A stretch of DNA of 64,000 nucleotides from an uncultured Candidatus Saccharibacteria bacterium (GTDB lineage: Bacteria > Patescibacteriota > Doudnabacteria > UBA920 > 2-01-FULL-46-14), in NCBI GenBank assembly GCA_964565195.1, contig CAZMCQ010000004.1:64133-128132 (forward strand), given 5' to 3'. Of the stretch, positions 29,279 to 58,308 are shown piece by piece. The translations under genes and the position numbers were made by a program. Numbering within the stretch: the stretch's first letter is position 1; every line of letters starts with the position of its first letter. The notes below the pieces were generated by a model. The model worked only from the letters and a program-made list of their open reading frames with translations, ran no database searches and had not been told where the DNA came from.

Positions 29279-29444
29279 CTTTCATTTATGTTATAATAAA
29301 GATGGTTCATTTTGACCTTGAGACCGAACTGAAACCAAAACCAGACAACGCGCAGGCGCGCCGCCATCGGGAAATCATCCTTTTTTGGCAGGTCGCCTTC
29401 GCTGTGGCCGTGATTTTGTTATTAATTTTTGCCTTGAGTTAGAA

Positions 29445-39445: not shown

Positions 39446-39482
39446 TTTTGACACAATAAACCTCGCAGGCGTATAGTCAAAT

Positions 39483-39650
39483 TATGCTTGTTTATAAATG
39501 TGACTTGTGCAAGAAAATTTTAAAAGACCGAGAAAAAAGCGTAACCGCCGGTTTTGGCTGGGACTCGAAAGTGCTCTGTACTGATTGCGGTAAACCGGTA
39601 GTCAAATTTTTGCTTCAGCAGAAACTTATAGAAAAAGACTCGACATTATG
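39483..39650 (+). CDS. 55-aa zinc-ribbon protein (CxxC...CxxC)
   Basis: MLVYKCDLCKKILKDREKSVTAGFGWDSKVLCTDCGKPVV... The stop overlaps the next ATG (ATGA). Below the ORF-track size cutoff. Confidence 0.35.
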
Positions 39651-39938: not shown

Positions 39939-40558
39939 TGCCAGAATCGTCCGAGAAACCAAAATACCTTCCGCCGCAAATCTGGATACCAGTTTTAACG
40001 TCCGCGATCTCCCTCGCGGTTGTTTTCGTTTTGTGGGGCCTAAACCGCGATGCGCTGTATCAGACGCAGAATCAAATTCCCTCTCCAGGTGGTGGAGAGG
40101 GTGAGGGAGAGGTCGCTAACTGGCAAACTTATCGGAATGAGGAGTATGGATTCGAGGTGAAGTATCCGCGTGAATGGTTTTCTTTACTAGATAAGAATAA
40201 TTTACAACTCTGGTCGCCTCAAAATTGGGACGCTCAGAACACTATTAATTCTTATGCCACGTTGCCAAATATAGCGTTTGCGATTCAAGATAATCCTGAA
40301 AAGTTAACTTTCCTTGAGTGGTTTCAGCAAAACTATGGGGAGAAAGATTTTGTTGGAGAAAATCCTAAAAAGGTGACCTTAAGCAATGGAAGTTCGGCTT
40401 ATTTTGTTAGACTGCCGGGTTTAGGAGATGGTGATAGCACTCTTTTTGTTTCCTCCGAGAAGCAGCGAGATTTTATCAAAATTTTTATTCAGAAGCCTTA
40501 TTCTGAACTCGAGAGTTTCGATAACCAAATCCTCTCCACTTTCAAATTCACGAAATAA
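39938..40558 (+). CDS. hypothetical membrane-anchored/exported protein carrying an in-frame palindromic repeat insert
   Basis: GTG start overlapping the previous stop. TM segment LTSAISLAVVFVLW. The PSPGGGEGEGE stretch is encoded by the palindromic repeat at 40077-40115. Confidence 0.5.
   Translation: MPESSEKPKYLPPQIWIPVLTSAISLAVVFVLWGLNRDALYQTQNQIPSPGGGEGEGEVANWQTYRNEEYGFEVKYPREWFSLLDKNNLQLWSPQNWDAQNTINSYATLPNIAFAIQDNPEKLTFLEWFQQNYGEKDFVGENPKKVTLSNGSSAYFVRLPGLGDGDSTLFVSSEKQRDFIKIFIQKPYSELESFDNQILSTFKFTK
40077..40115 (+). repeat. palindromic repeat family 1, copy F (CCCTCTCC-aggtggtg-GGAGAGGG tga GGGAGAGG), in-frame in a CDS
   Basis: Inverted repeat seen in the sequence. Confidence 0.6.
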
Positions 40559-40737
40559 TGTATTGACGTGGAAACCACGGCCGTAGTCTCCGCGTCGATG
40601 AAGAGATTGCAATGTCGGTGGAAAAAAGAGCTAGAATCTATTGTACCAAAATTCTAGCAATTGCGTGATTTTAGGTAGAAAATTTTTTATTTCTTTTCAT
40701 TACATAACTTTACAAGATTGAAAGTCAGCCTTTCTTC

Positions 40738-40768
40738 CAACCTCTCCCCATCGCCCGGGGAGAGGTGT
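40738..40768 (+). repeat. palindromic repeat family 1, copy A (CCTCTCCCC-atcgcc-CGGGGAGAGG), intergenic, followed by TATAAT
   Basis: Perfect 9-bp inverted repeat. Confidence 0.7.
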
Positions 40769-40774
40769 ATAATT

Positions 40775-40890
40775 TACTTGTCATTCCCGCCCCCCGATCG
40801 CAGTCGAGGGCAAGCTTCGCGGGAATATATAATAATGGAACTGGATTCCGGGTCCCTCCAAAGGCGGGCAGGCAGGCCCGGAATGACAGA
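40775..40890 (+). repeat. family 2 hairpin module variants (TGTCATTCCCGC...GCGGGAATATATAAT and GGATTCCGGG...CCCGGAATGACA) upstream of the glycosyltransferase
   Basis: Shares ATTCC(C/G)GC-loop-GC(G/C)GGAAT(GACA) with 42117-42144 and 58278-58302. Confidence 0.6.
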
Positions 40891-40898
40891 TAAAGATT

Positions 40899-42113
40899 AT
40901 GATACTGGGCATTGATGCGAGTCAGGCGAACAGGAAGGTCAGAAGCGGGACGGAGTGGTATGCTTTCCATTTGATAGATGAGTTCAAAACGCTGCTGCGC
41001 GATCGATCTGATGTCCGCGTGGTTTTGTATCTGAAAGACGCGCCGCAGGCAGATTTGGTCAATAACTTGCCCGACAATTTTTCGGTGAAGATATTGCGCT
41101 GGCCATTGAAATATTTTTGGGGACAAATCAGGTTATCATGGGATATCCTGCGAAATACGCCCGATGTATTATTTTGCCCAGCTCATACAATTCCAATCTC
41201 GACCTCTCTCCTAACCTCTCCCCATCACCTGGGGAGACGAAGAATGCGGGTATTTACGACCTTGCATGACATTGGGTTTGAGGATAATCCGGAACTTTAT
41301 GATAAATTGTCGCTTTGGTACCATCGCTGGTCGGCGAAATTTGCGGTGAAACATGCGTATCATATTTTTACGATCTCGGAATTTTCAAGGCAAAGAATTA
41401 TGGAAGTGTATGGGTGTCCGGAGGAGAAGTTGAGTGTCACTTATCTTGGGGTTAACCCCTCTGCCCCTTCGGGGCATCTCCCCTCGCCAGGAGAGAGAAA
41501 AAATGAATATTTATTATTTGTAGGCAGACTCGAGCCAAAGAAGAATATTCTGAACATCGTGAAGGCGTATGAAAAATTTGTGTCATTGCGAGCGCAAGCG
41601 AAGCAATCCCAGGGCGAAACCGAGATTGCTTCGTCGCAAGCTCCTCGCAACGACATTCCGGATCTTATCCTCGCGGGACGCAAAGTCAGGGTTGCCGATG
41701 TTGAAGATTATTTATCCAAAAGGTCTGAGCTTGCCAAACGCGTTAGATTCACGGGCTACATCAGCGAGGGGGAAAAGCAACAGCTTTATCGCGATACCGC
41801 CGTATTTGTTTTCCCCACTTTTTATGAAGGATTTGGGATCCCCATTCTGGAAGCCCAGAGTTTTGGCGTTCCGGTGATTACGTCCAATCGCACAGCTAAC
41901 CCAGAAATAGCGGGCGAGGGCGCGCTGATTGTTAATCCGGAAAGCGTGAATGACATCGCGGCAGCCATTGGGAAACTTTTGGGCGACCAAAGTTTACGTG
42001 AGGAGAAGATTAGATTAGGATTAGAGAATGTGAAGCGATTTAGTTGGGGAGAGACGGCAAAACTGACATTAGCAAAGCTGATGTCATCCCGGACTAGATC
42101 CGGGAACTATTAA
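40899..42113 (+). CDS. GT4-family glycosyltransferase carrying two in-frame palindromic repeat inserts
   Basis: ...YLLFVGRLEPKKNI... and ...FVFPTFYEGFGIPILEAQSFGVPVI... The inserts are TSPHHLGRRR (41205-41245) and PSAPSGHLPSPGER (41455-41500). The C-terminal tail SSRTRSGNY is encoded by hairpin 42087-42105. Confidence 0.85.
   Translation: MILGIDASQANRKVRSGTEWYAFHLIDEFKTLLRDRSDVRVVLYLKDAPQADLVNNLPDNFSVKILRWPLKYFWGQIRLSWDILRNTPDVLFCPAHTIPISTSLLTSPHHLGRRRMRVFTTLHDIGFEDNPELYDKLSLWYHRWSAKFAVKHAYHIFTISEFSRQRIMEVYGCPEEKLSVTYLGVNPSAPSGHLPSPGERKNEYLLFVGRLEPKKNILNIVKAYEKFVSLRAQAKQSQGETEIASSQAPRNDIPDLILAGRKVRVADVEDYLSKRSELAKRVRFTGYISEGEKQQLYRDTAVFVFPTFYEGFGIPILEAQSFGVPVITSNRTANPEIAGEGALIVNPESVNDIAAAIGKLLGDQSLREEKIRLGLENVKRFSWGETAKLTLAKLMSSRTRSGNY
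41205..41245 (+). repeat. palindromic repeat family 1, copy B (AACCTCTCCCC-atcacct-GGGGAGACG) inside the glycosyltransferase ORF
   Basis: Near-identical to copy A. Confidence 0.7.
41455..41500 (+). repeat. palindromic repeat family 1, copy C (CTGCCCC-ttc-GGGGCA; TCTCCCCT-cgcca-GGAGAGAG) inside the glycosyltransferase ORF
   Basis: Imperfect double hairpin. Confidence 0.55.
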
Positions 42114-42165
42114 GAATGGATTCCCGCCTTCGCGGGAATGACAATTTGAGAAAATGCTATAATAT
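42083..42165 (+). repeat. family 2 two-hairpin gene-boundary module: TCCCGGA-ctaga-TCCGGGA, AACTATT, ATTCCCGC-cttc-GCGGGAAT-GACA, then TGcTATAAT
   Basis: The glycosyltransferase stop codon lies inside the module. The -10 at 42158-42163 is 8 nt before the holB ATG. Paralogous to 58226-58308. Confidence 0.7.
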
Positions 42166-42171
42166 GCGCAA

Positions 42172-42951
42172 ATGATCGGACACGAGAAACAAAAAGCGAT
42201 GTTCGAGCGAGCCATAAAGAACGGCCAGCTGTCGCACGCCTATGTTCTGGCCGGGCCAGAGAACATCGGCAAAACAACGTTTGCGATCGAGTTCGCGCGC
42301 GAGCTTGGCTGCCACCCGATCCTCGACACCACGCTATTTGATCTAGAAAACAGTATGACGATCGAACAGGCGCGGGAACTGCAGCATATTTTGAATCTCA
42401 CCTCCGCGACCGGAAAGCACAAAGTCGCGATCATTTCTTACGCCGACCGGATGACCGAGGCAGCGGCCAATGCGATTCTCAAATTTTTGGAAAACCCGCC
42501 CAAGCGTACGATTATTTTTTTGATTACCGCAAATTACTATGCGCTTCTCCCGACGATTGCCTCGCGCGTGGTGCGCGTCAATTTTTCTCGCCTTTCCGAT
42601 GATGAAGTGCGCAAGGCAGTTTCCGATGAGAAAATCGTGGGATTGGCTTGCGGCCGTATCGGTCTAGCTAAACGTCTTGTCGAAAACCCCGAGGAATTGC
42701 AATTTTTTCAGAATGCGTGGCAGCAATACAAAGTTTTGGAAGCCGGAAAGCAGCACGAGCGCCTGCTTGCCGCCGAAAAATTTTATGAGCTGGAAAGTCA
42801 TTTGCTGGCCAAACTTTTTTCTTTCTGGATGCAGGAATGGGCCGAAAAACCAGAAGGTGTCACGCTGGGCCGGCGTCTCCGCACGGCATTTGCGGATCTG
42901 CGCTATAATTTAAATACTAAAATCCTTCTGGATAATTTATTTTTGCCATGA
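42172..42951 (+). CDS. holB: DNA polymerase III delta-prime subunit
   Basis: ...AYVLAGPENIGKTTFA... AAA+ clamp-loader fold. Confidence 0.75.
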   Translation: MIGHEKQKAMFERAIKNGQLSHAYVLAGPENIGKTTFAIEFARELGCHPILDTTLFDLENSMTIEQARELQHILNLTSATGKHKVAIISYADRMTEAAANAILKFLENPPKRTIIFLITANYYALLPTIASRVVRVNFSRLSDDEVRKAVSDEKIVGLACGRIGLAKRLVENPEELQFFQNAWQQYKVLEAGKQHERLLAAEKFYELESHLLAKLFSFWMQEWAEKPEGVTLGRRLRTAFADLRYNLNTKILLDNLFLP

Positions 42952-43994
42952 ACGGAAAAAGTATAGCGAGGGTTGCGCTTGTGATTCTGCCGGTTTTATT
43001 TACGGCCCAGGCCTGTAATTTTCTTTTTGGCGATATTCTGGGCGGCACTGACCAGGGCAGCGGCGTGCGAGGCGTATTCAAAAGCGTGGACGCCGGCGAG
43101 ACGTGGGCCGCGGCAAATGAATCCGCCGGAGAAGTCAAGCTTTCTGACTCGCAGGTTTATCGGCTGTTCATTGAGCGATATAACCCGATCAATATATTGG
43201 CCGCAACCTTGGATGAGGGCGTGTTTGCCAGTTCCAATGAAGCGGAGTCTTGGGGCATCCTTTTACCAAATTTTTCGACCTTTGAAGTTTTTATCAACCC
43301 AAACAACAGCCAGGAAATTTATGTGTCGGGATCGAGCGGCAAACTGGCCACAATCTTCAAAAGTTCCAATCGCGGCGGAACGTGGGAGGAAGTTTACCGG
43401 CAGCCGAATGTCGAGGCCGAGGTGAGCGCCATGGCTTTCGATCCGGTAACGCCCAGCACATTTTATGCCGGGCTTTCTTCGGGCACGCTGCTCAAAACGA
43501 CTGACGGCGGGGAAACGTGGAGAAACCTCGTGGATTTTGGCGACCGCATCAGGCAAATCGAAATCGCGCAAAGCCCCGCGCGGACAATTTATGTGTTGTT
43601 AAAGGGCAAGGGCCTAAAGCAAAGCTCGGACGGCGGCCAGTCCTGGGCCTCGCTGCTGCTGCCTGGCAATCCGGCAAGTTATAATCATTTAGTTTTAAGT
43701 CCCAGCAATCTCGTCTATGTCGCCACAGGGAATGGCCTTTATCAATCTCTTGATAGCGGGAAAACCTGGCGACGGTTCTTGCTTCCCGTGCAGGCGACCA
43801 GCGATGATGTCTCGGCTGTGGCCGTTGACCCGAAAAATTCGCGCTTTATTTACGCTGCCATAAGGTACGTGTTTTTTAAAAGCGCCGACGGCGGCGCGAC
43901 CTGGCAGACAGTATCGTTGCCGACGCGGCGTTTGATCAGCGATATCGTAGTTAATCCTAACGAACCCAACAAGATCTATGTCGGACTTCGCTGA
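42948..43994 (+). CDS. secreted BNR/Asp-box repeat (beta-propeller) protein
   Basis: Signal peptide plus repeated S-x-D-x-G-x-T-W motifs (SVDAGETW, TTDGGETW, SSDGGQSW, SLDSGKTW, SADGGATW). Confidence 0.7.
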   Translation: MNGKSIARVALVILPVLFTAQACNFLFGDILGGTDQGSGVRGVFKSVDAGETWAAANESAGEVKLSDSQVYRLFIERYNPINILAATLDEGVFASSNEAESWGILLPNFSTFEVFINPNNSQEIYVSGSSGKLATIFKSSNRGGTWEEVYRQPNVEAEVSAMAFDPVTPSTFYAGLSSGTLLKTTDGGETWRNLVDFGDRIRQIEIAQSPARTIYVLLKGKGLKQSSDGGQSWASLLLPGNPASYNHLVLSPSNLVYVATGNGLYQSLDSGKTWRRFLLPVQATSDDVSAVAVDPKNSRFIYAAIRYVFFKSADGGATWQTVSLPTRRLISDIVVNPNEPNKIYVGLR

Positions 43995-44517
43995 TTTTGA
44001 AAAAGCAATTGAGTTTTTGAAAGTAGAATTGGGAAAACTACGGACAGGGCGGGCGAATCCCGCGCTCATTGAAGATTTGAAAATTGATTATTATGGCGCG
44101 CCGACGCCAGTCAAGCAAGTCGCGAGCATTTCCGTGCCCGAAGCTCGGCAGCTCCTGGTGCAGCCGTGGGATAAAAATGCCCTCGCTCCTTTGGAAAAAG
44201 GCATCCGTGACGCGGGCCTCGGGCTCAACCCGACAAACGAAGGCGACAAGCTCCGTATCACTTTGCCGGCGCTTAATGAGGAACGCCGCCGTGAGCTTAC
44301 AAAACTCGTTGGCAAGTTTGCCGAAGAAGCGCGCGTGCGTATCCGCAATGCGCGCGAGGAAATTATAAAAGACTTGAAGCGCAAAGAAGAAGCCGGCACA
44401 ATTTCCGAAGACCAAAAGATGCGGGAGCAAAAAAAACTTCAGGACCAGGTGGACGAATTCAATAAAAAAGTCAAAGAAATCGCAGAAACCAAAGAAAAAG
44501 AAATAATGACGGTCTAG
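43978..44517 (+). CDS. frr: ribosome recycling factor
   Basis: ...FEKAIEFLKVELGKLRTGRANPALIEDLKIDYYG... Confidence 0.9.
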   Translation: MSDFADFEKAIEFLKVELGKLRTGRANPALIEDLKIDYYGAPTPVKQVASISVPEARQLLVQPWDKNALAPLEKGIRDAGLGLNPTNEGDKLRITLPALNEERRRELTKLVGKFAEEARVRIRNAREEIIKDLKRKEEAGTISEDQKMREQKKLQDQVDEFNKKVKEIAETKEKEIMTV

Positions 44518-44540
44518 CGGGTCTTGTGGTAGAATAAATT

Positions 44541-45653
44541 ATGATTCTGCTGACTATCCTCGTTTTTATCATCATCCTTGGCCTGCTTGTGTTTGTACAC
44601 GAGTTCGGCCATTTTGTGATGGCGAAGAGGGCCGGCATGCACGTCCAGGAGTTTGGTTTTGGTTTTCCGCCGCGATTGTTTGGCATTCGCCGCGGGGAGA
44701 CGATGTACTCCGTAAACTGGATACCGCTTGGCGGGTTTGTAAAAATCGCAGGCGAAGAGGGGCACTCGGACGACCCGCGCGCATTTGCCAACAAAAGCTT
44801 CGGGCAGCGCCTGGCAACACTCCTGGCCGGCGTGACCATGAACTTTATCCTCGGTTGGTTTTTGATTTTCCTGGGCTTTTTGGCCCTCGGCGCGCCGACT
44901 GACCTCGAGGATAATCCGTATTTGGCAAATGCGAATATTCGCAGTGAAGAAATAGGTATAATCGTGGTTCAAGGCGATTCGCCGGCCGAAGCTGCGGGTT
45001 TTCGCGCCGGCGACGTGATATTGTCAGTGGACGGGCAGAAATTTACCGAGATCATGCCGCTTATTGACTACACCAAAAGCCGCGCTGGCAGCCCGGTGAA
45101 TTATGAACTGAAACGCGGCAAAAAAATTATCAATAAGCAGGTGGTGCCGCGCACTGAAGTTGCCGAAGGAGAAGGGCCGGTCGGATTTGCACCGGCCAAA
45201 ATCGGGATTGTGACTTACCCCACTCTTACCGCTTTAAAGCTTTCGCTTTTTGCCTTTGTGAGCAAAGCTATCCTGATTTTCTCGGCCTTTGGCCTGTTGA
45301 TTAAAAACATCCTTACTACCGGCCACGTTATCGAAGGTTTGTCCGGTCCTGTTGGCATTGCCGTTCTGACGCGCGACTTTACGCAGCTCGGGATAATTTA
45401 CCTCGTGCAGTTCGCGGCCACGCTCTCTATAAATCTTGGGGTGATCAACGCCTTTCCCTTTCCGGCGCTCGACGGCGGCCGCGTGCTGTTCTTATTCGTT
45501 GAAAAGATCCGCGGAAAAAAGAGCATCAAATGGGAACAGTATGCGAACGTTATCGGCTTCGCGCTCCTGATGCTCCTTATGGTTGCCATCACCTTCCGCG
45601 ACGTCGGCAAATTTTCGGAGCAGTTTAAGAATTTGTTTGAGAGGATATTATAA
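44541..45653 (+). CDS. rseP: RseP-like site-2 zinc metalloprotease (M50) with a PDZ domain
   Basis: HEFGHFVMAKRAGM near the N-terminus, then multiple TM segments. Confidence 0.85.
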   Translation: MILLTILVFIIILGLLVFVHEFGHFVMAKRAGMHVQEFGFGFPPRLFGIRRGETMYSVNWIPLGGFVKIAGEEGHSDDPRAFANKSFGQRLATLLAGVTMNFILGWFLIFLGFLALGAPTDLEDNPYLANANIRSEEIGIIVVQGDSPAEAAGFRAGDVILSVDGQKFTEIMPLIDYTKSRAGSPVNYELKRGKKIINKQVVPRTEVAEGEGPVGFAPAKIGIVTYPTLTALKLSLFAFVSKAILIFSAFGLLIKNILTTGHVIEGLSGPVGIAVLTRDFTQLGIIYLVQFAATLSINLGVINAFPFPALDGGRVLFLFVEKIRGKKSIKWEQYANVIGFALLMLLMVAITFRDVGKFSEQFKNLFERIL

Positions 45654-45657
45654 ATCC

Positions 45658-45686
45658 TTGAAAAAGAACCTAGGTTGCTGTATAAT
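45658..45686 (+). promoter_or_regulatory. near-consensus promoter TTGAAA-17nt-TATAAT with the hicB ATG 6 nt downstream (leaderless)
   Basis: -35 at 45658-45663, -10 at 45681-45686, ATG at 45693. Confidence 0.6.
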
Positions 45687-45692
45687 CAGGAC

Positions 45693-45920
45693 ATGAAGCA
45701 CATCATCCAATTTCGCATAACCAAGTACGAAAACTACTATGTGGCCGAAGGGCTGGATCTGGCTATTGTTACCCAGGGTAATACTTTAGACGAGGTGGTG
45801 GCAAATTTGAAAGAAGCGCTCCAGCTTCATCTGGAAGGCGAAAATCTGACATCTCTTGGGCTTGCCCCTGATCTCCACGCCTTAGTTAATTATGAAGTAG
45901 TAGACCTAGTGCGTGCCTAA
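45693..45920 (+). CDS. hicB: HicB-family antitoxin
   Basis: MKHIIQFRITKYENYYVAEGLDLAIVTQGNTLDEVVANLKEALQLHLEGE... (UPF0150/HicB fold). Confidence 0.72.
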   Translation: MKHIIQFRITKYENYYVAEGLDLAIVTQGNTLDEVVANLKEALQLHLEGENLTSLGLAPDLHALVNYEVVDLVRA

Positions 45921-46155
45921 ACTTCGGGTATTGTCAGGGCAGGACTTGGTTAAAATTTTCAATAAGCTCGGATTCGCTGTGGCTGCCCAAAGAGGCAGCC
46001 ACATTAAACTTAGACGAGTTACGGCCGACGGTTCAGTTCAGATTTTGACTATTCCAAGTCACAAGGAAATCAAAACAGGGACGTTAAAGGCAATCTATAA
46101 CCAAGCTTTGCGATTTATTTCGGAAGCAGAATTGAGAAAGGAATTTTATCAATGA
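45913..46155 (+). CDS. hicA: HicA-family mRNA interferase toxin
   Basis: ...LSGQDLVKIFNKLGFAVAAQRGSHIKLRRV...VQILTIPSHKEIKTGTLKAIYNQA... Overlaps hicB by 8 nt. Confidence 0.78.
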   Translation: MPKLRVLSGQDLVKIFNKLGFAVAAQRGSHIKLRRVTADGSVQILTIPSHKEIKTGTLKAIYNQALRFISEAELRKEFYQ

Positions 46156-46303
46156 CCCCCAAAGAAACCAAAATTTTGGCAGGAGTAATCGGTGCGGTCG
46201 TGCTGATCGCAGGGTTTATTTATGCTGAAAAAGTGCGACAACGACAAGCCAATCCGCAGCCGCAGAATCAATCACAATCCATGAGGGGGGAGAAACCTAC
46301 TTA
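46151..46303 (+). CDS. 50-aa single-TM peptide overlapping the hicA stop (ATGA)
   Basis: MTPKETKILAGVIGAVVLIAGFIYAEKVRQRQANPQPQNQSQSMRGEKPT. Below the ORF-track size cutoff. Confidence 0.3.
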
Positions 46304-46306
46304 AGT

Positions 46307-47509
46307 ATGCGCCAATCGCAACTGTTTACAAAAACTTTAAAATCAGTTTCAAAAGATAAGCAGAGTGTGAACGCGCAGCTACTCGAGCGCGGGGGATTTA
46401 TTTTCAAAAATTCCGCGGGGGTTTACACGTTCCTGCCATATGGCTGGCGCGTGATGAAGAAGATCATGAACATCATTCGCGAAGAGATGGACGCGATCGG
46501 CGGCGAAGAGCTGTTTATGCCGGCGCTGGTGGAAAAGAAATATATGGACGCGACTGGCCGGTGGAATACAGATATCGGCTTCAAAATTCAGGACGAGAAC
46601 TTTGTGCTCGGCTGGACGCATGAAGAAGTCCTGACCGCGATAACTTCAAAATTCATCAGTTCCTACAAAGATCTGCCCTTTAGCGCGTATCAGATCCAGA
46701 CCAAGTTTCGCAATGAAGCGCGCGCCAAGTCTGGCCTGCTGCGCGGGCGCGAATTTATGATGAAGGATCTTTACAGCTTCCACGCGAGCGAAGAAGACCT
46801 CTGGAAATACTATGAAGAGGTAAAAAAAGCGTATTTCAAAGTTTTCGAACGCTGTGGCCTGAAAACAGTTTATACGGTTGCCGCCGGCGGAGATTTCACA
46901 GTCAGCAATACCCACGAATTTCAAGTCTTGTCAGAAGTTGGGGAGGATAAAGTGATGGTTTGCTCAAAATGCAGCTATGCCGAGAACGGCGAAATTTCCA
47001 AACTCAAAAGCGGCGACAAATGCCCGCAATGTGGCGGGAAAATTAATGAAAAACGCGGCATTGAGGTGGGCAACATCTTTCCACTTGGCACAAAATATTC
47101 GGACGCTTTTGGATTAAAATTTACTGACGAGGCCGGCCAGCAGCAAGCCGTGGTTATGGGGTCCTATGGCATTGGCCTTGGCCGCGTGATGGGCGCAATA
47201 GTCGAGGTTTCGCATGACGAAAAAGGCATCATCTGGCCGGAAAGCGTGGCGCCGTTTCGGGTTCATCTGCTGGCACTCAATGTTGATGCAGAGAAACAAT
47301 ACGAAACTTTACGGAAGGCCGGGATTGGGGTATTCTATGATGACAGGGAGGTTTCCGCAGGGGTCAAATTCGCGGATGCGGATCTGCTCGGTATCCCTTG
47401 GCGGGCTGTGGTGTCAGAAAAAACTGGAGACAAGGTGGAAATTAAAAAACGAAATGGGAAGAATTCAAAATTAATCTCACTGGAAGAGTTGCTAAAAATC
47501 AAAAATTAA
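46307..47509 (+). CDS. proS: prolyl-tRNA synthetase (short form lacking an editing insertion)
   Basis: Class II aaRS motifs ...FMMKDLYSFH... and ...VVMGSYGIGLGRVMGAIVE... Confidence 0.82.
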   Translation: MRQSQLFTKTLKSVSKDKQSVNAQLLERGGFIFKNSAGVYTFLPYGWRVMKKIMNIIREEMDAIGGEELFMPALVEKKYMDATGRWNTDIGFKIQDENFVLGWTHEEVLTAITSKFISSYKDLPFSAYQIQTKFRNEARAKSGLLRGREFMMKDLYSFHASEEDLWKYYEEVKKAYFKVFERCGLKTVYTVAAGGDFTVSNTHEFQVLSEVGEDKVMVCSKCSYAENGEISKLKSGDKCPQCGGKINEKRGIEVGNIFPLGTKYSDAFGLKFTDEAGQQQAVVMGSYGIGLGRVMGAIVEVSHDEKGIIWPESVAPFRVHLLALNVDAEKQYETLRKAGIGVFYDDREVSAGVKFADADLLGIPWRAVVSEKTGDKVEIKKRNGKNSKLISLEELLKIKN

Positions 47510-47596
47510 ATATTAAAAATAAAAATGACAGGGTAAAATTAGAAAATTTTTAATTTTGCTTTGTCATTTTCCATTTTGATTTTTGCATTTTGAACT

Positions 47597-48655
47597 ATGA
47601 GTTTATCTGACACCATTTTCGGCAAATTTTCCAAAGACATTGGCATTGACCTCGGCACGGCCAACACGCTCGTGTACGTTCGGGGCAAGGGCATCGTGAT
47701 CAACGAGCCCCCTGTGGTTGCCATCAACACAAAGACGACACAGACTCTCGCCATCGGCAACGAGGCGAAAAAAATGGTCGGCCGCACCCCCGGACACATC
47801 GTCGCCACGCGTCCGCTTGTGGATGGCGTCATTTCGGATTTTGAGGTCACCGAGCAGATGCTGCGTTATTTCATCGACAAAGTCCATCAGCAGGCCTTTA
47901 CGTTTCTCTCGCGGCCCCAGGTCGTGATCGGTATTCCCTCGGGCGTGACCGAGGTCGAAAAGCGCGCGGTGCAGGATGCGACGCTTAATGCCGGCGCGCG
48001 CACCGCGTTTCTCATCGAAGAGCCGATGGCTGCCGCAATCGGCGCGCGCCTGCCGGTGCAGGACCCGGCTGGATCGTTCATCGTGGATATCGGCGGCGGG
48101 ACGACCGAGATTGCCGTGATATCCCTGGGAGGAATTGTCGTTTCCAAGAGCATCCGTATCGCCGGCGATGAGATGAACGAGAATATCGTGCAATTCGCCC
48201 GCGATGAATTCAATTTGCTGCTCGGCGAGCGCACGGCCGAGGAAGTGAAAATCAAGATCGGTTCGGCTTACCCGCAGAAAGACCGGATGGAAACCAAAAT
48301 GCGCGGCCGCGATCTGGTCACCGGCCTGCCGAAAGAAGTGACAGTCAACGACGAACAGATCAGGATCGCCCTGTCGCGTTCCGTGCGCACGATAGTCAAT
48401 TCGATCCGTCAGGCGATCGAGGAAACGCCGCCCGAACTCGTGGCGGACATTATGGGCCGCGGCATCATCCTTGCCGGTGGCGGGGCGCTCTTGCGCGGGA
48501 TTGATACTTTGATCGCGCGCGAGACGCAGATGCCGGTGACCATTACCGACGACCCGCTGACGGCGGTGGTGCGGGGGGCGGGCATAGTGCTGGAAGACCT
48601 GGAAACCCTGCGCGAGGTTCTGGTTTTGACCGAGTTTGAGCAGATCTCGCGATGA
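47597..48655 (+). CDS. mreB: rod-shape protein MreB (paralog 2, at the head of mreBCD-pbp2)
   Basis: ...GIDLGTANTLVYV... and ...IVDIGGGTTEIAV... Confidence 0.9.
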   Translation: MSLSDTIFGKFSKDIGIDLGTANTLVYVRGKGIVINEPPVVAINTKTTQTLAIGNEAKKMVGRTPGHIVATRPLVDGVISDFEVTEQMLRYFIDKVHQQAFTFLSRPQVVIGIPSGVTEVEKRAVQDATLNAGARTAFLIEEPMAAAIGARLPVQDPAGSFIVDIGGGTTEIAVISLGGIVVSKSIRIAGDEMNENIVQFARDEFNLLLGERTAEEVKIKIGSAYPQKDRMETKMRGRDLVTGLPKEVTVNDEQIRIALSRSVRTIVNSIRQAIEETPPELVADIMGRGIILAGGGALLRGIDTLIARETQMPVTITDDPLTAVVRGAGIVLEDLETLREVLVLTEFEQISR

Positions 48656-49440
48656 GCGCGCCGGTGCATGTCGTAATCGCTTTTTTGGTCCTCATGGGAC
48701 TCGTGTTGTTAAACTTAGCCGGCGGTTTGCAATTCGTTCAGGATTATGGCCGGAAAGTGGTGGAGTTTTTTGATATTCCTCTGGTTGCCGTTTTTTCGGG
48801 GATCAAAAAGTTCTCGCTCGTGGTCGTACACGTCGACGACTTGTATGATCAGAACATCATTCTGACCGAGCAGGTGCAAGAACTTTCGGCAGAAGTGGCG
48901 ACATTGGAAAAAGCAAGTGCGGAAAATCGGATCCTGCGCGAAGCTTTGGGTTTTGAACAGGGCCGCAGCCTAAATCTGCTTCCGGCCGAGGTAATCACCC
49001 GCGATTTTATGGCGCCCGACCAGAGACTGGTTTTGAACCGTGGTGCCGAAAGTGGGGTCACGCGCGGCGCGGCAGTGATTGTCTCCGGCCGGGTATTGGT
49101 GGGGGTTATTTCTGAAGTTTTTAATGGAACTTCAGAGGTACAGCTTCTCACGGCCTCGGGAGTTTCCGTCAATGCCGAAGATGCCGTGACCGGCGCGACC
49201 GGCATTGTCAAAGGTGAACACGGGCTGGGCCTGCTTCTTGATCTTATTTCCCAGGATGCCACAGTGAACCCCGGCGACCGGCTTGTCACTTCGGGCCTTG
49301 GCGGAACTTTCCCCAAAAATTTGCTGATCGGCAAAATCGGCGATACACGCAGCGGCACGAGTGAGCTGTTTCAGAATGCCAGCGTGATTCCTGCCGCCGA
49401 TCTCTCCGCCTTGAGATTTGTTTTTGTGGTAAAGAGATAA
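48652..49440 (+). CDS. mreC: rod-shape protein MreC
   Basis: N-terminal TM segment and a coiled coil, then a beta-rich domain with GVISEV and GLGG motifs. Confidence 0.7.
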   Translation: MSAPVHVVIAFLVLMGLVLLNLAGGLQFVQDYGRKVVEFFDIPLVAVFSGIKKFSLVVVHVDDLYDQNIILTEQVQELSAEVATLEKASAENRILREALGFEQGRSLNLLPAEVITRDFMAPDQRLVLNRGAESGVTRGAAVIVSGRVLVGVISEVFNGTSEVQLLTASGVSVNAEDAVTGATGIVKGEHGLGLLLDLISQDATVNPGDRLVTSGLGGTFPKNLLIGKIGDTRSGTSELFQNASVIPAADLSALRFVFVVKR

Positions 49441-49454
49441 ATTGATATACAGGG

Positions 49455-49967
49455 ATGAACAAACAAAATTTGTACCAACTGCTTTACCTCTTCTTTCTTT
49501 TTCTGATTTACGTTGCCGGTTTGAAAGTTTTTACCGGTCATCCCTATCTCGTGCCGCAGCTGGTTTTTCTTTCCGTAATAATTTTTGCCGTCCGGGAGAC
49601 TTTTATTGCGACGCTTTGGTATGCCTTCGCCGCCGGATTTTTACTGGAATTTTTTTCCGGGTTTTTTTTCGGCGCCAATCTTCTGGCGATGGTTATCATC
49701 GCGCTGGCCGCTTTTCTTATCACCCGCAATGTCACCTCCCGACGGGTGGTTTTGCCGGCCGCCGCGACGCTCGCGGCGCTGGGGACAGCGATTTTTCCGC
49801 TTGTCGCCTATTTGTATTTGTTGTTAATGGCTGGGCTGAATTTGACCGAGAGCGTGGCGTTTGCCGATTTATTCTCCGTGAACATAATTTGGGCCGCACT
49901 GCTAAATGTGCTGTTTTTTTATCCGGTGAAATATGCGCAACCCGTTTCGACTGAAAAATACAATTGA
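49455..49967 (+). CDS. mreD: rod-shape protein MreD (polytopic membrane protein)
   Basis: Five TM segments. The position between mreC and pbp2 supports the call. Confidence 0.55.
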   Translation: MNKQNLYQLLYLFFLFLIYVAGLKVFTGHPYLVPQLVFLSVIIFAVRETFIATLWYAFAAGFLLEFFSGFFFGANLLAMVIIALAAFLITRNVTSRRVVLPAAATLAALGTAIFPLVAYLYLLLMAGLNLTESVAFADLFSVNIIWAALLNVLFFYPVKYAQPVSTEKYN

Positions 49968-51909
49968 AGCCGGAAGGAGTGTGGAAGGAGGAGCAGGTTC
50001 AGAACTTGCCGTTGAAGAGGTTTTGATTGATCGCGATTCACGGGAGCGCCTGGAACGCGGCGGCGAGGCGCGATTGCCGTCAGTTTTTTTTCGGCTTTTG
50101 CTGCTGGTAGCTTTTGTGGTGGCCTTTGGGCGCCTGTATTATTTGGCGGTCGCCGAACATGAATACTATCGGCAGATTGCTGACGGCAATCGCTTGCGCA
50201 TTGAATACCTGCCAGCGCCGCGTGGGGCGATCTACGACCGTTTTGGAGAGGTCATTGTGGGCAATAAACCCAGTTTTGAGGTTGTGGCGAGCCCTCTGGA
50301 CCTGCCGAAGGATGAGGCAGCCAGGCAAGCGATCATTACTCGCGTCGCCAATATTTTATCATTGCCGGCAGAGGAAATTACCAGTCTGATCGCCGCGGCC
50401 AGCGCGGAGAGCGGGATAAATTCTGTTTTGGTAAAAGAGAATTTAACCCGCGAGGAAGCCCTGGTCTGGAGCGAGCAGGAACGCGAACTGGCTGGTTTTC
50501 ATCTCGCTAAAACCCCGATCCGGGATTATAAGGAAGCCCCAGCTTATGCGCAGCTGGTCGGCTATGTCGGGAAAATCACGGCGGAGCAGTACGAAGAAAA
50601 GTCGGCCGCAGGCTATTTTTATAATGATTCACTCGGCAAGACGGGATTGGAGCAGCAGTATGAACAATTTCTCCGAGGCGAGTTTGGCGAACGGCAGGTT
50701 GAAGTAGACGCGCGTGGCGCGGTCAAGAAAGTTTACGGCGAGAAGCCGGCGGTGACCGGCGAAAGTTTACATCTGAACATCGATGCCCGCCTGCAGGAAA
50801 AACTCTATTCGGTCTTGGAGGCGCAGCTGCGTTCTACTGGGCGTAAAAAAGCGTCGGCCATTGCGGTTGACCCGAGAAGCGGGCAAATTCTCGCGCTCGT
50901 TAACCTACCGTCGTATGACAACAATCTTTTTGCGGGCGGCATCAGCGTCGCAGATTACGCGCGCCTTACCCAGGATAAAAATTTGCCGTTGTTTAACCGC
51001 AGCGTTGCCGGCACTTATCCGCCTGGTTCAACCATAAAGCCCCTTGTGGCTGCGGCTGCCTTGCAGGAGGGTGTGATTACAGAAAAAACGGTCATCAACG
51101 ACCGCGGTTATATTCTGGTGCCTAATCCTTACGGCGGGCCGGATTACTATTTTTACGGTTACCGGAGAGAGGGACTGGGGCCTATGAATGTCCGATCTGC
51201 CATCGCGCTATCGTCTGATATCTATTTCTACACAGCAGGCGGCGGTTGGGACGAGGCAAAGGTTAATGGGCTGGGCATAGACCGCCTCGCGCGGTATTAT
51301 CAGGCATTTTATCTCGACCGGAAACTTGGTATAGATTTGCCGGGTGAGAAAACCGGATTTGTTCCGACGCCGGATTGGAAGAAGGAATATTTCAACAACC
51401 ATCCGATAGATTCGCGCTGGTATCTCGGGGATACATACCATGTGGCGATCGGGCAGGGCGATCTGCTCGCGACGCCGCTGGACGTAGTTTTTTGGACAGC
51501 CAGCATTGCCAATGGCGGGAAGATCTTTCGGCCATGGATTGCAAACCATGTCGAGGATGAGAACGGCAACTGGCTTGCGGAATTTAAGCCAGAGCAGATC
51601 GCTGCGCTGCCTATTGATGCGAAAAATTTGCAGATCGTTCGCGAGGGGATGCGCGCAGTGGTGACTGATGGCACGGCCAAAGCATTGGACACTTTGTCAG
51701 TGGCTGTGGCCGGTAAAACCGGCACTGCGCAGTTTGACGCGCGCAATCGCGCGCGCACACACGCCTGGTTTGCGGGCTTTGCGCCCTACGACGACCCACA
51801 GATCGCAATCGTCGTATTGATAGAAGACGGGGGAGAAGGCTCATCGATGTCTGTCCCCGTGGCCCGTGACGTCTTCGACTGGTGGGCGAAGAATCGGTAT
51901 CAGAAGTAA
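49933..51909 (+). CDS. mrdA: penicillin-binding protein 2 (transpeptidase)
   Basis: ...STIKPLVAAAAL... and KTGTAQ (SxxK, KTG). Confidence 0.85.
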   Translation: MRNPFRLKNTIEAGRSVEGGAGSELAVEEVLIDRDSRERLERGGEARLPSVFFRLLLLVAFVVAFGRLYYLAVAEHEYYRQIADGNRLRIEYLPAPRGAIYDRFGEVIVGNKPSFEVVASPLDLPKDEAARQAIITRVANILSLPAEEITSLIAAASAESGINSVLVKENLTREEALVWSEQERELAGFHLAKTPIRDYKEAPAYAQLVGYVGKITAEQYEEKSAAGYFYNDSLGKTGLEQQYEQFLRGEFGERQVEVDARGAVKKVYGEKPAVTGESLHLNIDARLQEKLYSVLEAQLRSTGRKKASAIAVDPRSGQILALVNLPSYDNNLFAGGISVADYARLTQDKNLPLFNRSVAGTYPPGSTIKPLVAAAALQEGVITEKTVINDRGYILVPNPYGGPDYYFYGYRREGLGPMNVRSAIALSSDIYFYTAGGGWDEAKVNGLGIDRLARYYQAFYLDRKLGIDLPGEKTGFVPTPDWKKEYFNNHPIDSRWYLGDTYHVAIGQGDLLATPLDVVFWTASIANGGKIFRPWIANHVEDENGNWLAEFKPEQIAALPIDAKNLQIVREGMRAVVTDGTAKALDTLSVAVAGKTGTAQFDARNRARTHAWFAGFAPYDDPQIAIVVLIEDGGEGSSMSVPVARDVFDWWAKNRYQK

Positions 51910-52038
51910 ACGGAGGTATTTGTCCACGAGTAGTATACAGATTATAAACAGCATATTCACACTTGATAAAATTTTCCCTTATTTTAGGCACAAGCAGTTT
52001 TTGTTGACGCAAAATAGGGGGTGTTGTAAATTATCTCT

Positions 52039-52249
52039 GTGGGGGGAATCTCTTTGAAAACGTGATTTGAGTGAGAGCGGGAAACCGTTTTCTGCCGAAC
52101 CGCCTGATCAGCGGCTTCGGGCCGGCGCCGACAGGCTCGCGGGGCAACTTGCGGGAACTCGGCTAAGGCGATTGGGTTTCGTTTTCAATCACGATTTTCT
52201 CCACCGATGAAGAAAGGTTCAGTGCGCTTGGCGCCTTGAATCTTTTTTC
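52039..52249 (+). ncRNA. candidate structured RNA of about 210 nt (6S-like sRNA or a cis-acting leader/riboswitch for the downstream gene)
   Basis: Promoter TTGACG-17-TAAATT at 52004-52032. A nested long-range helix joins 52056-52067 to 52186-52198, and GAAACC at 52081-86 to GGTTTC at 52174-79. The core at 52095-52170 is GC-rich with hairpins. The 3' end is a rho-independent terminator. No ORF is present. Confidence 0.45.
52215..52249 (+). terminator. rho-independent terminator closing the RNA/leader
   Basis: AGGTTCA-gt-GCGC-ttg-GCGC-ct-TGAATCT followed by TTTTTT. The RBS GGAGG and ATG at 52290 lie downstream. Confidence 0.65.
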
Positions 52250-52289
52250 ATTTTGTGTTATGCTCGCAGCAAATTTCTTGGAGGAAATC

Positions 52290-53255
52290 ATGGACGTTAA
52301 ACTGGTAAAAATGCCGATCACGGGCTATGCCAAGCCGGCCAATCCGAAACAGTTTTTTCCCTTGGTCAGGTTGGCACAAAACTTCGGGGTGGTGATTCGT
52401 CCAAAGGAGGGACTTCGGGGCGACTCCTATATCAAAATCACGCGGGGAAATTGGGCGGGTGGTAAGCGGACGCGCGTCGAGTCGTCGTACCGAACTTATC
52501 AGGAGGCGATCCGGTCGTTTCGCCACATCATGACCAGCATCATGACCACGTCAGGGGATTATGCCTTTTGGCTTCAGCATTTTTTGGAATTCCACAAGTT
52601 CCTCGCGACCGCTGATCTGAAGTCGTCTGATTCCCAAACCACGGCGCGAGTTCTGCTGAATCGGGCCGAAAAACGGTTCGCCAGGGCGCGCTGCCCCAAT
52701 TGTCTGGTCATCCGCGAAGCAATTTCCGGCGAGGATCTGCGGAAAAAAAGCCTCGCTGAGCTTCTGGAAATAGCGAATCCTAGCGCGGCGCGTGCGAAAA
52801 TTGTCTTTTGCGTGAAGGAGCCGCTGCAGGATGAAACCGAACGGATTAAGGCGCAGGTTAACCGCCTTGTTTTTCTTGAGAGCTTGCTCGGACGCATCTG
52901 GACGCACGAGCTCTATAACTGCTCGCTCGCGTTAAATCGGCTCATCGCTCTTGATGCCTATCTTGAAGATTTTCGGCCCTCGCTTTCTGCACACCAGCGA
53001 GTCATCAATCTTCTCGCATTGACGCTGGAGCTCACCCGACAGATGTTTGACCTGCGCGTACAGTACGCGCACAGACATCTTTTGGCGTTGCGGAAGGTTC
53101 TGCTCGCGTCCATCGGTGGGACGATTCCCAATGAAGCCAAGACGCGCCTGTGTGACGCCATGACCAACTTGGAGCATTATTGGCTCTGGTTGAATCTGGA
53201 GGATTCTAAGGGTCTCACCGGCCGTGAGTTGCAGTCTTTCGGTTGGGTGGCGTGA
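52290..53255 (+). CDS. hypothetical alpha-helical protein (322 aa)
   Basis: GGAGG 6 nt before the ATG at 52290. The ORF-track start at 52236 lies inside the terminator. No recognisable motif. Confidence 0.55.
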   Translation: MDVKLVKMPITGYAKPANPKQFFPLVRLAQNFGVVIRPKEGLRGDSYIKITRGNWAGGKRTRVESSYRTYQEAIRSFRHIMTSIMTTSGDYAFWLQHFLEFHKFLATADLKSSDSQTTARVLLNRAEKRFARARCPNCLVIREAISGEDLRKKSLAELLEIANPSAARAKIVFCVKEPLQDETERIKAQVNRLVFLESLLGRIWTHELYNCSLALNRLIALDAYLEDFRPSLSAHQRVINLLALTLELTRQMFDLRVQYAHRHLLALRKVLLASIGGTIPNEAKTRLCDAMTNLEHYWLWLNLEDSKGLTGRELQSFGWVA

Positions 53256-53273
53256 CGCTGCAGTTTGCCAAAG

Positions 53274-53304
53274 GGGTGGCCCCACATTCGGCCACCCTGT
53301 TTTT
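53274..53304 (+). terminator. rho-independent terminator
   Basis: GGGGTGGCC-loop-GGCCACCC followed by TGTTTTT. TTATACT (-10) for folD lies downstream. Confidence 0.65.
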
Positions 53305-53341
53305 ATTTGTGTTATACTATTCTTTTCTTTATCTCACTTCT

Positions 53342-54142: not shown

Positions 54143-54151
54143 AGTATCCAC

Positions 54152-54670: not shown

Positions 54671-54684
54671 TGTTATAATTAAGT

Positions 54685-56182: not shown

Positions 56183-56248
56183 CGGGGATTGCTTCGCTTG
56201 CGCTCGCAATGACAAGTCTTTGCGAGGAGCGAAGCGACGAAGCAATCT
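56183..56248 (+). repeat. long imperfect palindrome carrying CTTCGC...GCAATGACA (family 2 variant), abutting the next ATG
   Basis: GATTGCTTCGCTTGCGCTCGCAA-tgacaagtc-TTTGCGAGGAGCGAAGCGACGAAGCAATC. Confidence 0.55.
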
Positions 56249-56837: not shown

Positions 56838-56905
56838 GAAGTCATCCTGAGGACGGGAGTCCGAAGGATCTCACGCGCGAGATTCTTCGCTTCGCTCAGA
56901 ATGAC
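56838..56905 (+). repeat. palindrome CGAAGGATCTCACGCG/CGCGAGATTCTTCG + CTTCGCTCAGAATGACA (family 2 variant) upstream of serS
   Basis: Seen in the sequence. AATGACA lies 14 nt before the serS ATG. Confidence 0.55.
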
Positions 56906-56917
56906 AAAATCCAGAAT

Positions 56918-58252
56918 ATGTTAGATATAAAATATATAAGAGAAAATAAGGAGGCGGTGAAAAAAGCAATCATAGATAAGAGAATTGTTCTCAATTTGGA
57001 CGAGCTTTTGGCATTGGATGAAAAGCGGCGGAAACTCATTGCCGAGATCGATCAGTTGCGCGCGAAGAAAAACGACATTGCCGAAAAAATGCAAAGCGCG
57101 GATGCTTCCACAAAAGAACGCCTGAAAATCGACGGCAAAGAGGTCAAAGAAAAGATAGCGGCGCTCGAAAAAGAACTGACTGATGCGGAGCAGCGTTATA
57201 ACGAGCTCATGCTCCTTGTGCCGAACATCCCATCTAAAGATACGCCTGTCGGCGGCGAGCAGGATTTTAAAGTCATTTCGACCTGGGGCAGGCAGCCGAA
57301 ATTTGATTTTCCGATTAAAGATCATATTGAACTCGGAAAATCACTGGATATTTTGGATCTGGAGAGGGGAGTGAAGACCGCTGGTTTTCGCGGCTATTAC
57401 CTCAAAAACGAAGGCGCGCTTTTGCACCTCGGCGTTTTGATGCTGGCCTTTCAGAAAATGGTAAAAAAAGGCTTTACACCGATGATCCCTCCGACTCTGA
57501 TCAAAGAGTTCGCGCTTATCGGGAGCGGCCACTTTCCGACAGGAAGACAGGAAATATACGAGGTCGAGGAATATGCCCCCTCACCCCACCCTCTCCCGCC
57601 AGGGGAGAGGGATAAAGGGAGAGGGCCAGAAACCAAGTTTCTGGTTGGCACGGCCGAGCCGTCGCTTTTGGCCTATCACGTCGGCGAAACATTGGAGGAA
57701 AAGAATTTACCTGTTAAGCTTGTCGGCATCTCGCCGTCTTACCGGCGCGAAGTCGGTGGTTATGGCAAAGACACCAAAGGCGTTTATCGCACCCATGAGT
57801 TCACAAAAGTGGAGCAAGTGGTTCTGTGTAAGGATCTCCTGGAATCAGAGCATTGGTTTACAGAGATGGCACGGATCGCGCAGGAGCTTTTACAGGACTT
57901 GAAGCTGCCGCATCGCGTCATTCAGATTGCCACCGTGGAGATGGGGGCTGGGAAATACAAAATGTATGACATCGAGACCTGGATGCCCGCGCGCGGCGCC
58001 TATGGCGAGACGCATTCCTGCTCCAACCTCACGGACTGGCAGGCGCGGCGGCTGAATATCAAATACCGCGACAAGGCCGGTAAGACAGAATATGTTCACA
58101 CTTTGAATAATACGGTACTCGCCAGCCCTAGAATTTTGATCGCGATTTTGGAAAATAACCAGCAAAAAGACGGCTCTGTGGAAGTGCCCAAAGATTTGCG
58201 AGATTTTGTGGGGGAAAAGAAATTGACCCCGCAGGGGTCATCCCGCACTTGA
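56918..58252 (+). CDS. serS: seryl-tRNA synthetase carrying an in-frame palindromic repeat insert and a repeat-encoded C-terminal tail
   Basis: MLDIKYIRENKEAVKKAI... The insert YAPSPHPLPPGERDKGRGPETK lies between EIYEVEE and FLVGTAEPSL. The C-terminus ...TPQGSSRT is encoded by hairpin 58226-58260. Confidence 0.9.
   Translation: MLDIKYIRENKEAVKKAIIDKRIVLNLDELLALDEKRRKLIAEIDQLRAKKNDIAEKMQSADASTKERLKIDGKEVKEKIAALEKELTDAEQRYNELMLLVPNIPSKDTPVGGEQDFKVISTWGRQPKFDFPIKDHIELGKSLDILDLERGVKTAGFRGYYLKNEGALLHLGVLMLAFQKMVKKGFTPMIPPTLIKEFALIGSGHFPTGRQEIYEVEEYAPSPHPLPPGERDKGRGPETKFLVGTAEPSLLAYHVGETLEEKNLPVKLVGISPSYRREVGGYGKDTKGVYRTHEFTKVEQVVLCKDLLESEHWFTEMARIAQELLQDLKLPHRVIQIATVEMGAGKYKMYDIETWMPARGAYGETHSCSNLTDWQARRLNIKYRDKAGKTEYVHTLNNTVLASPRILIAILENNQQKDGSVEVPKDLRDFVGEKKLTPQGSSRT
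57577..57625 (+). repeat. palindromic repeat family 1, copy D (CCCTCTCCC-gcca-GGGGAGAGGG) inside serS
   Basis: Perfect 9-10 bp inverted repeat, plus a flanking GGGAGAGGG. Confidence 0.7.
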
Positions 58253-58308
58253 TGCGGGATCCAGAACTATTTGTATAGATTTCCGCTTTCGCGGGAATGA
58301 CATATAAT
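58226..58308 (+). repeat. family 2 two-hairpin gene-boundary module (paralog of 42083-42165): ATCCCGCA-cttga-TGCGGGAT, AACTATT, TTCCGC-tttc-GCGGGAAT-GACA-TATAAT
   Basis: The serS stop TGA lies in the hairpin loop. The -10 at 58303-58308 is 7 nt before the ddl ATG. Confidence 0.7.

Follow-up and report, generated by a model that had tools for sequence, protein, structure and literature searches.

What are the paired hairpins that recur at gene boundaries in a 64-kb stretch of a Candidatus Doudnabacteria (Patescibacteria/candidate phyla radiation, CPR) metagenome-assembled genome (MAG)? The whole 64-kb stretch is referred to here as the window, and loci with L numbers are homologous or metagenomic/viral loci used for comparison. 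Two closely similar modules, designated D3 and D6, occur between a GT4 glycosyltransferase gene and holB and between serS and ddl, respectively, and a sequence-only reading had taken them for a portable regulatory cassette. Our analysis revealed that the module is a real, non-random repeat, that it is an example of an already described class with a selfish appearance, and that it is not a regulatory cassette. D3 and D6 are probably head-to-head (HH) dimers of CGTC-tagged repetitive extragenic palindromes (REPs), the same kind of repeat as dRS3/NTS, the Ssn-related motif (SRM) and the Rickettsia palindromic elements (RPEs) RPE-4 and RPE-6. New in this case are that the host belongs to the phylum Patescibacteria, that the dimers are very tight, that the elements alter GT4 and SerS by in-frame insertion and new C-termini, and that different stem families are present at one site.

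In the plan of the module, (T/G)GTCAT and ATGACA enclose two hairpins, numbered 1 and 2 and separated by a short A/T-rich spacer; these are two inverted units with a GTCAT tag at each outer end. Regions 42083-42165 and 58226-58308 had been proposed to be homologous, and alignment of 42082-42143 with 58236-58302 confirmed this over ~65 nt, with long identical runs. Both modules fold as two hairpins; as single-stranded DNA the z-scores were -4.8 for D3 and -4.1 for D6, with none of 200 shuffles folding equally well, and as RNA they were -3.5 each. Hairpin 1 of D3 differs from that of D6 by one compensatory change (G:C to C:G). The two modules and their units are listed below, with E-values from the covariance model R1 described later in the text.

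42082..42143, no strand: D3, TGTCAT-hairpin-AACTATTAAGAATGG-hairpin-ATGACA with tags outward (HH), between GT4 and holB; the GT4 open reading frame (ORF) enters it by 32 nt.
42082..42110, + strand: D3 hairpin 1, TGTCATCCCGGACTAGATCCGGGAACTAT; 7-bp stem, 5-nt loop; SRM pattern match; model E = 0.048.
42116..42143, - strand: D3 hairpin 2, TGTCATTCCCGCGAAGGCGGGAATCCAT; 8-bp stem, 4-nt loop, CCA tail; NTS identity 26/28; SRM pattern match; model E = 3e-8.
58236..58302, no strand: D6, the other copy of the module, at the serS-ddl junction; the loop of its first hairpin contains the serS stop TGA (58250-58252).
58236..58264, + strand: D6 first unit, GGTCATCCCGCACTTGATGCGGGATCCAG; 8-bp stem, 5-nt loop, CCA tail; model E = 8.9e-4.
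58275..58302, - strand: D6 second unit, TGTCATTCCCGCGAAAGCGGAAATCTAT; 8-bp stem with one mismatch; NTS identity 25/28; model E = 2.6e-6.

Analysis of the window revealed six dimers (12 units), all within 40.7-58.3 kb, and the view of a recurrent, portable two-hairpin element at gene boundaries was supported. Four dimers were counted by a strict script versus 0.06 in 100 dinucleotide shuffles, and no units were found in the ~19 kb flanking the window. Diverged relatives had been noted at 40775-40890, 56183-56248 and 56838-56905; all three proved to be paired units of the same kind, and an extra one was found inside the GT4 ORF at 41581-41655. The proposed marker of the module, GCGGGAATGACA, fared less well: this 12-mer with up to two mismatches gave 13 matches versus 8.0 expected and is not enriched on its own. 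The four remaining dimers are as follows.

40779..40888, no strand: D1, two units with loops of 28 and 24 nt, tags outward; between the GT4 -10 box and the GT4 ATG (40899).
41581..41655, no strand: D2, inside the GT4 ORF; 75 nt equal to 25 in-frame codons, with SLRAQAKQSQGETEIASSQAPRND in the encoded peptide; stem type ATTGCGAG; model E = 1.5.
56184..56247, no strand: D4, tags inward, with GCAATGACA A GTCTTTGCGAG in its interior; fills the lysS-ham1 gap and ends 1 nt before the ham1 ATG; z = -5.1.
56840..56906, no strand: D5, at the ham1-serS junction, with outward tags; the stems are ATCCT/AGGAT and ATTCT/AGAAT.

Comparison of the units revealed the stem types ATTCCCGC, ATCCCGC, ATCCCGG, ATTCCGGG, ATTGCGAG, ATTCT and ATCCT. 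Kept across these types are the tag, A-T and T-A as the first two pairs of the stem, and a C that follows it. The trinucleotide GTC precedes the stem in 12 of 12 units, mostly as TGTC, with GGTC/AGTC in three and GTCGT/GTCTT variants in two. Tags point outward in five of the six dimers, D4 being of the tail-to-tail (TT) type with tags inward, and facing units are spaced by ~12-18 nt. Bases 56185-56214 (- strand) of D4 are identical to 41581-41610 (+ strand) of D2.

The class to which we assign D3 and D6 was named CGTC-tagged REPs by Di Nocera, De Gregorio and Rocco in 2013 (PMC3733652). Its members carry a CGTC or TGTC tag, stems of 8-9 bp starting with A and T, loops of 4-5 nt and a CCA tail; most are arranged as HH dimers, with outer tags and spacers that are conserved (PMC3733652). 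Intragenic inserts of the class are mostly dimers and add 20-30 residues, and ~10% occur at ORF ends (PMC3733652). In the 2013 scheme CGTC-1 is dRS3, and CGTC-1 and CGTC-4 of Rickettsia conorii are RPE-6 and RPE-4, respectively (PMC3733652). D3 and D6 match this description in nearly every point. The published stem, loop and tail form was found at 42116 (- strand), 58236 (+ strand) and, with one mismatch, 58275 (- strand), and 42082 (+ strand) almost fits it, with 7 bp. Shared with the published class are the (C/T)GTC tag, the stems starting with A and T, the CCA tail and the tags-outside dimers, together with 8-bp stems and 4-5-nt loops in most units of the two modules; also common to both are heterodimers with different stems and insertion into genes, either in frame within the ORF, adding 20-30 residues, or at its end. 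The differences are that Patescibacteria are not among the five phyla listed in 2013 (PMC3733652), that the window spacers measure ~12-18 nt versus mostly 20-100 nt in the published elements, and that several window units have 5-bp stems or 11-28-nt loops. The latter include D1, whose stems are 8 bp but whose loops are 24-28 nt, and D2, D4 and D5, whose closing stems are 5 bp with loops of 11-17 nt.

A second line of evidence comes from the work of Chenal et al. in 2025, who gave the Neisseria NTS as CGTCATTCCCGCGMAVGCGGGAATCYRG, including the dRS3 repeat, and named the broader pattern SRM (PMC11893778). Small GIY-YIG nucleases, Ssn (cd10448), bind NTS/SRM hairpins only as single-stranded DNA and not as RNA, with cleavage a few nt to the 5' side; the GTC that precedes the palindrome and the C that follows it are the critical bases (PMC11893778). 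Using the NTS consensus of Neisseria with up to three mismatches, two matches were found in the window versus 0.00 in shuffles, namely 42116-42143 (- strand; 26/28) and 58275-58302 (- strand; 25/28). The published SRM pattern gave three matches versus 0.25 expected, two of them in D3 at 42082 (+ strand) and 42116 (- strand). Furthermore, the covariance model R1, built from 87 aligned units flanking 80 metagenomic ssn genes and including no window sequence, had as its five best window matches the four hairpins of D3 and D6 and one D1 unit, 40841-40887 on the - strand (E = 3e-8, 2.6e-6, 8.9e-4, 0.037 and 0.048, the D1 unit scoring 0.037). The unit 58236-58264 (+ strand) has a near-twin in the ssn-flanking unit CGTCATCCCGCTACTTGATCGCGGGATCCAGG of L302, and an almost identical ssn-flanking unit exists for 58275-58302 (- strand). 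Discrimination was achieved only by dimer-level and model-based scores; generic scans for GTCAT followed by any hairpin were noisy for single units, with 25-31 matches versus 15-16 in shuffles. Rfam at gathering thresholds reported no family in the window, and our literature search found no work on REPs or MITEs in Patescibacteria.

With the NTS/SRM and Ssn system (PMC11893778) the window dimers share the 26/28 NTS identity, the GTC before and the C after the palindrome, and the unit-ssn-unit geometry. They differ from it in having no ssn gene within ~83 kb, and tight dimers devoid of ssn, in-frame insertions and a Patescibacteria host are not described in PMC11893778. A role in transformation is shown for Neisseria.

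The effects of these elements on proteins were analyzed by comparison with orthologs. SerS and GT4 of the window are 100% identical to Candidatus Doudnabacteria proteins (GCA_016198105.1), and the nearest other relatives are at ~67% and ~57%, respectively. Both genes end in an element.

40899..42113, + strand: GT4 glycosyltransferase gene; D2 lies in frame within it and its last 10 codons (SSRTRSGNY and the stop) come from D3.
56918..58252, + strand: serS; its last codons (SSRT and the stop) come from D6.

The proposal that the module encodes C-terminal tails was borne out: the SSRT tail occurs in none of 40 SerS orthologs, which end in ...GKKxIxPK, and the GT4 tail is likewise encoded by the element. 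The accompanying statement that the upstream stop lies in hairpin 1, so that both proteins end in SSRT, is correct for SerS, which ends in ...GSSRT with its TGA at 58250-58252 in the hairpin-1 loop, and incorrect for GT4, in which the TAG of the hairpin-1 loop is out of frame, the stop is a TAA at 42111-42113 in the spacer and the protein ends in ...MSSRTRSGNY.

Inside GT4, the 25-residue insert after "AYEK/M" is missing in most orthologs, and palindrome-type inserts are present there in five or six. The left junction of D2, TT/TGTCAT (41581, GT4 codon ~228), falls at the same nucleotide in the window, in L130 (1264) and in L131 (6748), and the GT4 proteins of L130 and L131 are 55-57% identical to the window protein. 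The stem families at this site differ, being ATTGCGAG in the window and L130 and ATTCCCGC in L131, and in a rough neighbour-joining tree the orthologs with an insert are scattered across three or more clades. Judged from these sequences, the site may be an insertion hot spot, its inserts may have been replaced by conversion, or an old insert may have been lost many times. In-frame palindromic repeats in housekeeping genes that add tolerated peptide segments are also known from the RPEs (PMC10969869); the classic RPE-1 differs in being ~100-150 bp long and Rickettsia-specific, and the likeness to RPE-4 and RPE-6 runs through the CGTC class.

Empty sites were found in relatives. The ham1-serS junction is empty in L129 (TAATATG) and occupied by another dimer in L128, the serS-ddl junction of L128 reads TAAACACCATG with only TAAACACC between the genes, and L131 has the site upstream of GT4 without D1. 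Both the serS-ddl junction of L128 and the ham1-serS junction of L129 measure 0-5 nt and are operonic. In addition, the NCBI contig JACQJL010000008 (L125) ends 14 nt past D5, 9 nt into serS, and a Logan contig of the same organism (L126) ends inside D6, in the spacer. Breaks at D5 and D6 in two independent assemblies indicate that the repeats break assemblies, and they hint at more copies elsewhere in the genome.

In L128, the nearest relative with a long contig, tags-outward dimers occupy 2225-2310 (between an HD-domain gene and ham1) and 2925-2995 (ham1-serS), with stems ATTCTGAG/ATCCTGAA and ATCCTGAA/ATTCCGGC; the dimer at 2925-2995 is followed by AGGAG and the serS ATG. In both L128 (1602-2156) and L129 (1835-2389) the HD-domain gene separates ham1 from a class II tRNA synthetase gene; the window lacks it, and the corresponding segment, 56183-56248, contains only D4.

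Could the hairpins serve the host as a regulatory cassette after all, with hairpin 1 ending the upstream transcript and hairpin 2, GACA and TATAAT starting the downstream one? TATAAT boxes do precede the downstream ATGs as had been reported, by 8 nt at holB and 7 nt at ddl, and Correia elements of Neisseria are a precedent for promoters borne on a MITE (PMC10969869). The two boxes are given below.

42155..42163, + strand: holB extended -10 box TGCTATAAT, 8 nt before the ATG at 42172; native and outside the repeat.
58303..58308, + strand: TATAAT directly adjoining D6 and 7 nt upstream of the ddl start codon (ATG, 58316); no counterpart in L128.

The repeat itself ends in ...ATGACA, and the sequence downstream is different in every copy. 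TATAAT, lying outside it, follows the dimer after 0 nt at ddl and 14 nt at holB and is missing after the other four dimers. The boxes of holB and GT4, furthermore, persist in orthologs where the dimer is missing from the position in question: TGGTATAAT stands 6 nt before the holB ATG in L131, where there is no dimer, TGCTATAAT stands 11 nt before the holB ATG in L130, and the region upstream of GT4 in L131 reads hairpin, TGTATAAT, TATTGA, ATG. In the window the GT4 -10 box TGTATAAT lies at 40766-40773, and D1 is inserted between box and ATG, separating a native promoter from its gene. The claim that the module supplies promoters is not supported. The claim that it terminates transcripts also failed, since no T-run follows any unit, the tails being CCA, CTA or ACT, and no unit appears in the terminator-like list for 40000-59000. 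One dimer, D2, sits within an ORF, and the 0-5-nt operonic spacing of the same junctions in relatives speaks in the same direction. Like Correia elements, the dimers are small gene-boundary repeats that could alter expression; unlike them, they show none of the terminal inverted repeats, TA target duplication, internal promoters or IHF site. What can be said in favour of a promoter role is that the terminal ATGACA, a 5/6 match to TTGACA, stands 16 nt from TAATAT at holB (9/12 consensus positions), and the two may form a hybrid promoter there, as far as the sequence goes. We regard the terminator-plus-promoter cassette as very improbable. An RNA-level role, in which the hairpins are kept mainly for the host at operon junctions, as protection against 3' exonucleases or as RNase III sites, and are not selfish DNA, has more to recommend it, in that both modules fold well as RNA, that PMC3733652 describes REPs as mostly downstream of ORFs and many of them as thought to act as RNA, and that Correia and ERIC elements affect mRNA processing (PMC10969869). 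Such a role is nevertheless unlikely, as relatives lack dimers at the same junctions, copies occur also in coding sequence and in a 5' leader, dimers occur in both orientations (D1 versus D3 and D6), and the tag and tail are the bases important for Ssn, which acts on single-stranded DNA and does not bind RNA (PMC11893778). Movement by a RAYT, an IS200/IS605-type tyrosine transposase, as for the REPINs formed by the GTAG-tagged REPs of Pseudomonas and E. coli, would account for the overall design, inverted hairpin doublets with a conserved unpaired tag, in which these elements agree (PMC3337134, PMC3733652). REPINs and BIMEs have a GTAG tag and a tyrosine (HUH) transposase, in contrast to the (C/T)GTC tag and the associated GIY-YIG enzyme family here; the survey by Di Nocera et al. 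detected no RAYT gene with CGTC units on its flanks (PMC3733652), and tblastn of the window and flanks with RAYT and IS200 queries, a weak test, gave no match. We therefore hold RAYT-driven movement to be extremely improbable.

At element-free genes across the window, boxes of the type TGnTATAAT or TATAGT closely precede the ATG, by a few nt, a leaderless layout. Many genes have TTGACA-17 nt-TATAGT or TGnTATAAT 2-9 nt before the ATG with no Shine-Dalgarno sequence, as at 39446-39490, 29290-29305, 1535-1550, 54665-54680 and 42155-42174. These sequence features suggest that leaderless mRNAs are common in this genome.

A palindrome upstream of mreB had also been counted as a relative of the module. 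It has only the hexamers ATGACA/TGTCAT in common with the module and no flanking G+C hairpins, and the candidate, at 47523-47569, was rejected because it contains no hairpin units; it resembles an ordinary A/T-rich terminator-like hairpin. It consists of an A/T-rich palindrome of ~20 pairs, AAATGACAGGG...CTTTGTCATTT, followed by a T-rich stretch, separates mreB from a class II tRNA synthetase gene, and was flagged as terminator-like.

Two other motifs were seen in the window. A second hairpin family, CCTCTCCC-loop-GGGAGAGG, gave two exact pattern matches versus 0 expected. Copies of it lie at 40741-40765, just before the GT4 -10 box, at 41210-41240, in frame in GT4 (LTSPHHLGRR), and at 57590-57610, in frame in serS (PSPHPLPPGERDKGRG), and PSPLQGEGRGE is found in this loop in a number of SerS orthologs. 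Runs of a short motif, (T)ACGAA(C/T), such as AGTACGAACCACGAACATGTACGAATCTACGAATACGAA, directly follow genes in the three intergenic regions 13355-13400, 16888-16900 and 54614-54650.

Returning to the assignment of D3 and D6 to the CGTC-tagged REPs, the arrangement of units around ssn genes bears on how such dimers might arise. Analysis of 80 metagenomic ssn loci revealed a unit upstream in 63, downstream in 56 and on both sides in 46. Where orientation was scored (n = 72), the tags were mostly outward: upstream units were on the + strand in 52 cases and the - strand in 6, and downstream units on the - strand in 47 and the + strand in 14. The viral ssn loci L017, L056, L057 and L069 show the same tags-outward arrangement. 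Because tags point outward in both, the window dimers have the geometry of an ssn cassette minus the gene. The dimers could thus be non-autonomous, MITE/REPIN-like derivatives of the ssn cassette. They would spread or persist via single-stranded DNA hairpins recognised by the small GIY-YIG nuclease Ssn, which would cut a few nt 5' of the tag, and they would insert where operon genes leave a few nucleotides free and where protein loops tolerate extra residues. Effects on expression, such as RNA hairpins in the mRNA and a displaced leaderless GT4 start, would then be by-products. As a wider and more tentative proposal, possible and somewhat doubtful at present, the tight HH dimers devoid of ssn may be miniature, non-autonomous unit-ssn-unit cassettes and Ssn the missing mobilising enzyme of CGTC REPs (dRS3, RPE-4 and RPE-6), active or recently so in the ultra-small Patescibacteria, where it would have repeatedly hit one GT4 nucleotide and operon junctions and remodelled essential proteins as RPEs do.

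The distribution of units beyond the window was also analyzed. Among the matches listed, NTS-type and ATTGCGAG-type units are very common in viral contigs and mostly single. When 185,579 species genomes were scanned with a module pattern that included AACTATT, four loci were identified, two of which show the complete dimer plan, L121 from a MAG of the Cloacimonadales and L122 from one of the Coxiellaceae; the same pattern had no match in viral contigs. The likeness of spacers across phyla is not evidence of transfer, because the pattern required AACTATT and such dimers are very numerous. Among the matches listed in phage-like contigs (L001-L120; e.g. L034, L036, L049 and L066), a single NTS-type unit very often precedes, by ~10 nt and in the same orientation, a ribosome-binding site with its start codon (unit...CCAG-N10-AGGAGG-N6-ATG).

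Several observations weigh against the assignment and against the proposed part of Ssn. The other stem types fall outside the SRM pattern, including the ATTGCGAG and ATTCTGAG units of D2, D4 and D5, and R1 gave these units E-values of only ~1-3. Pair counts of the R1 units are partly circular, because the units were selected as hairpins. None of the six dimers is bordered by a visible target-site duplication. Searches of the window and ~19 kb beyond its ends, ~83 kb in total, with a hidden Markov model from four Ssn proteins, with query sequences and in the Pfam lists of L125 and L127 detected no ssn (GIY-YIG) gene, so that mobilisation of the dimers by Ssn is something we infer. In 120 viral loci with ATTGCGAG-type units, the matches listed included no adjacent Ssn gene and one distant pseudogene. 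To our knowledge, transposition of such dimers has never been shown.

The assignment of the module to the CGTC-tagged REPs removes a tempting but wrong regulatory reading and extends these REPs and the Ssn-related motifs to Patescibacteria. In gene finding and annotation of CPR genomes, REP dimers should be expected to extend ORFs, supply proteins with new C-terminal tails, place 20-30 additional residues inside enzymes and interrupt assemblies. The assignment also joins the REP classification of 2013, which found no transposase for the class, with the Ssn paper of 2025, which cites neither that classification nor the RPEs, a link that may be useful. If the dimers are indeed ssn cassettes in a mobile, miniature form, they would define a class of mobile elements based on GIY-YIG enzymes.

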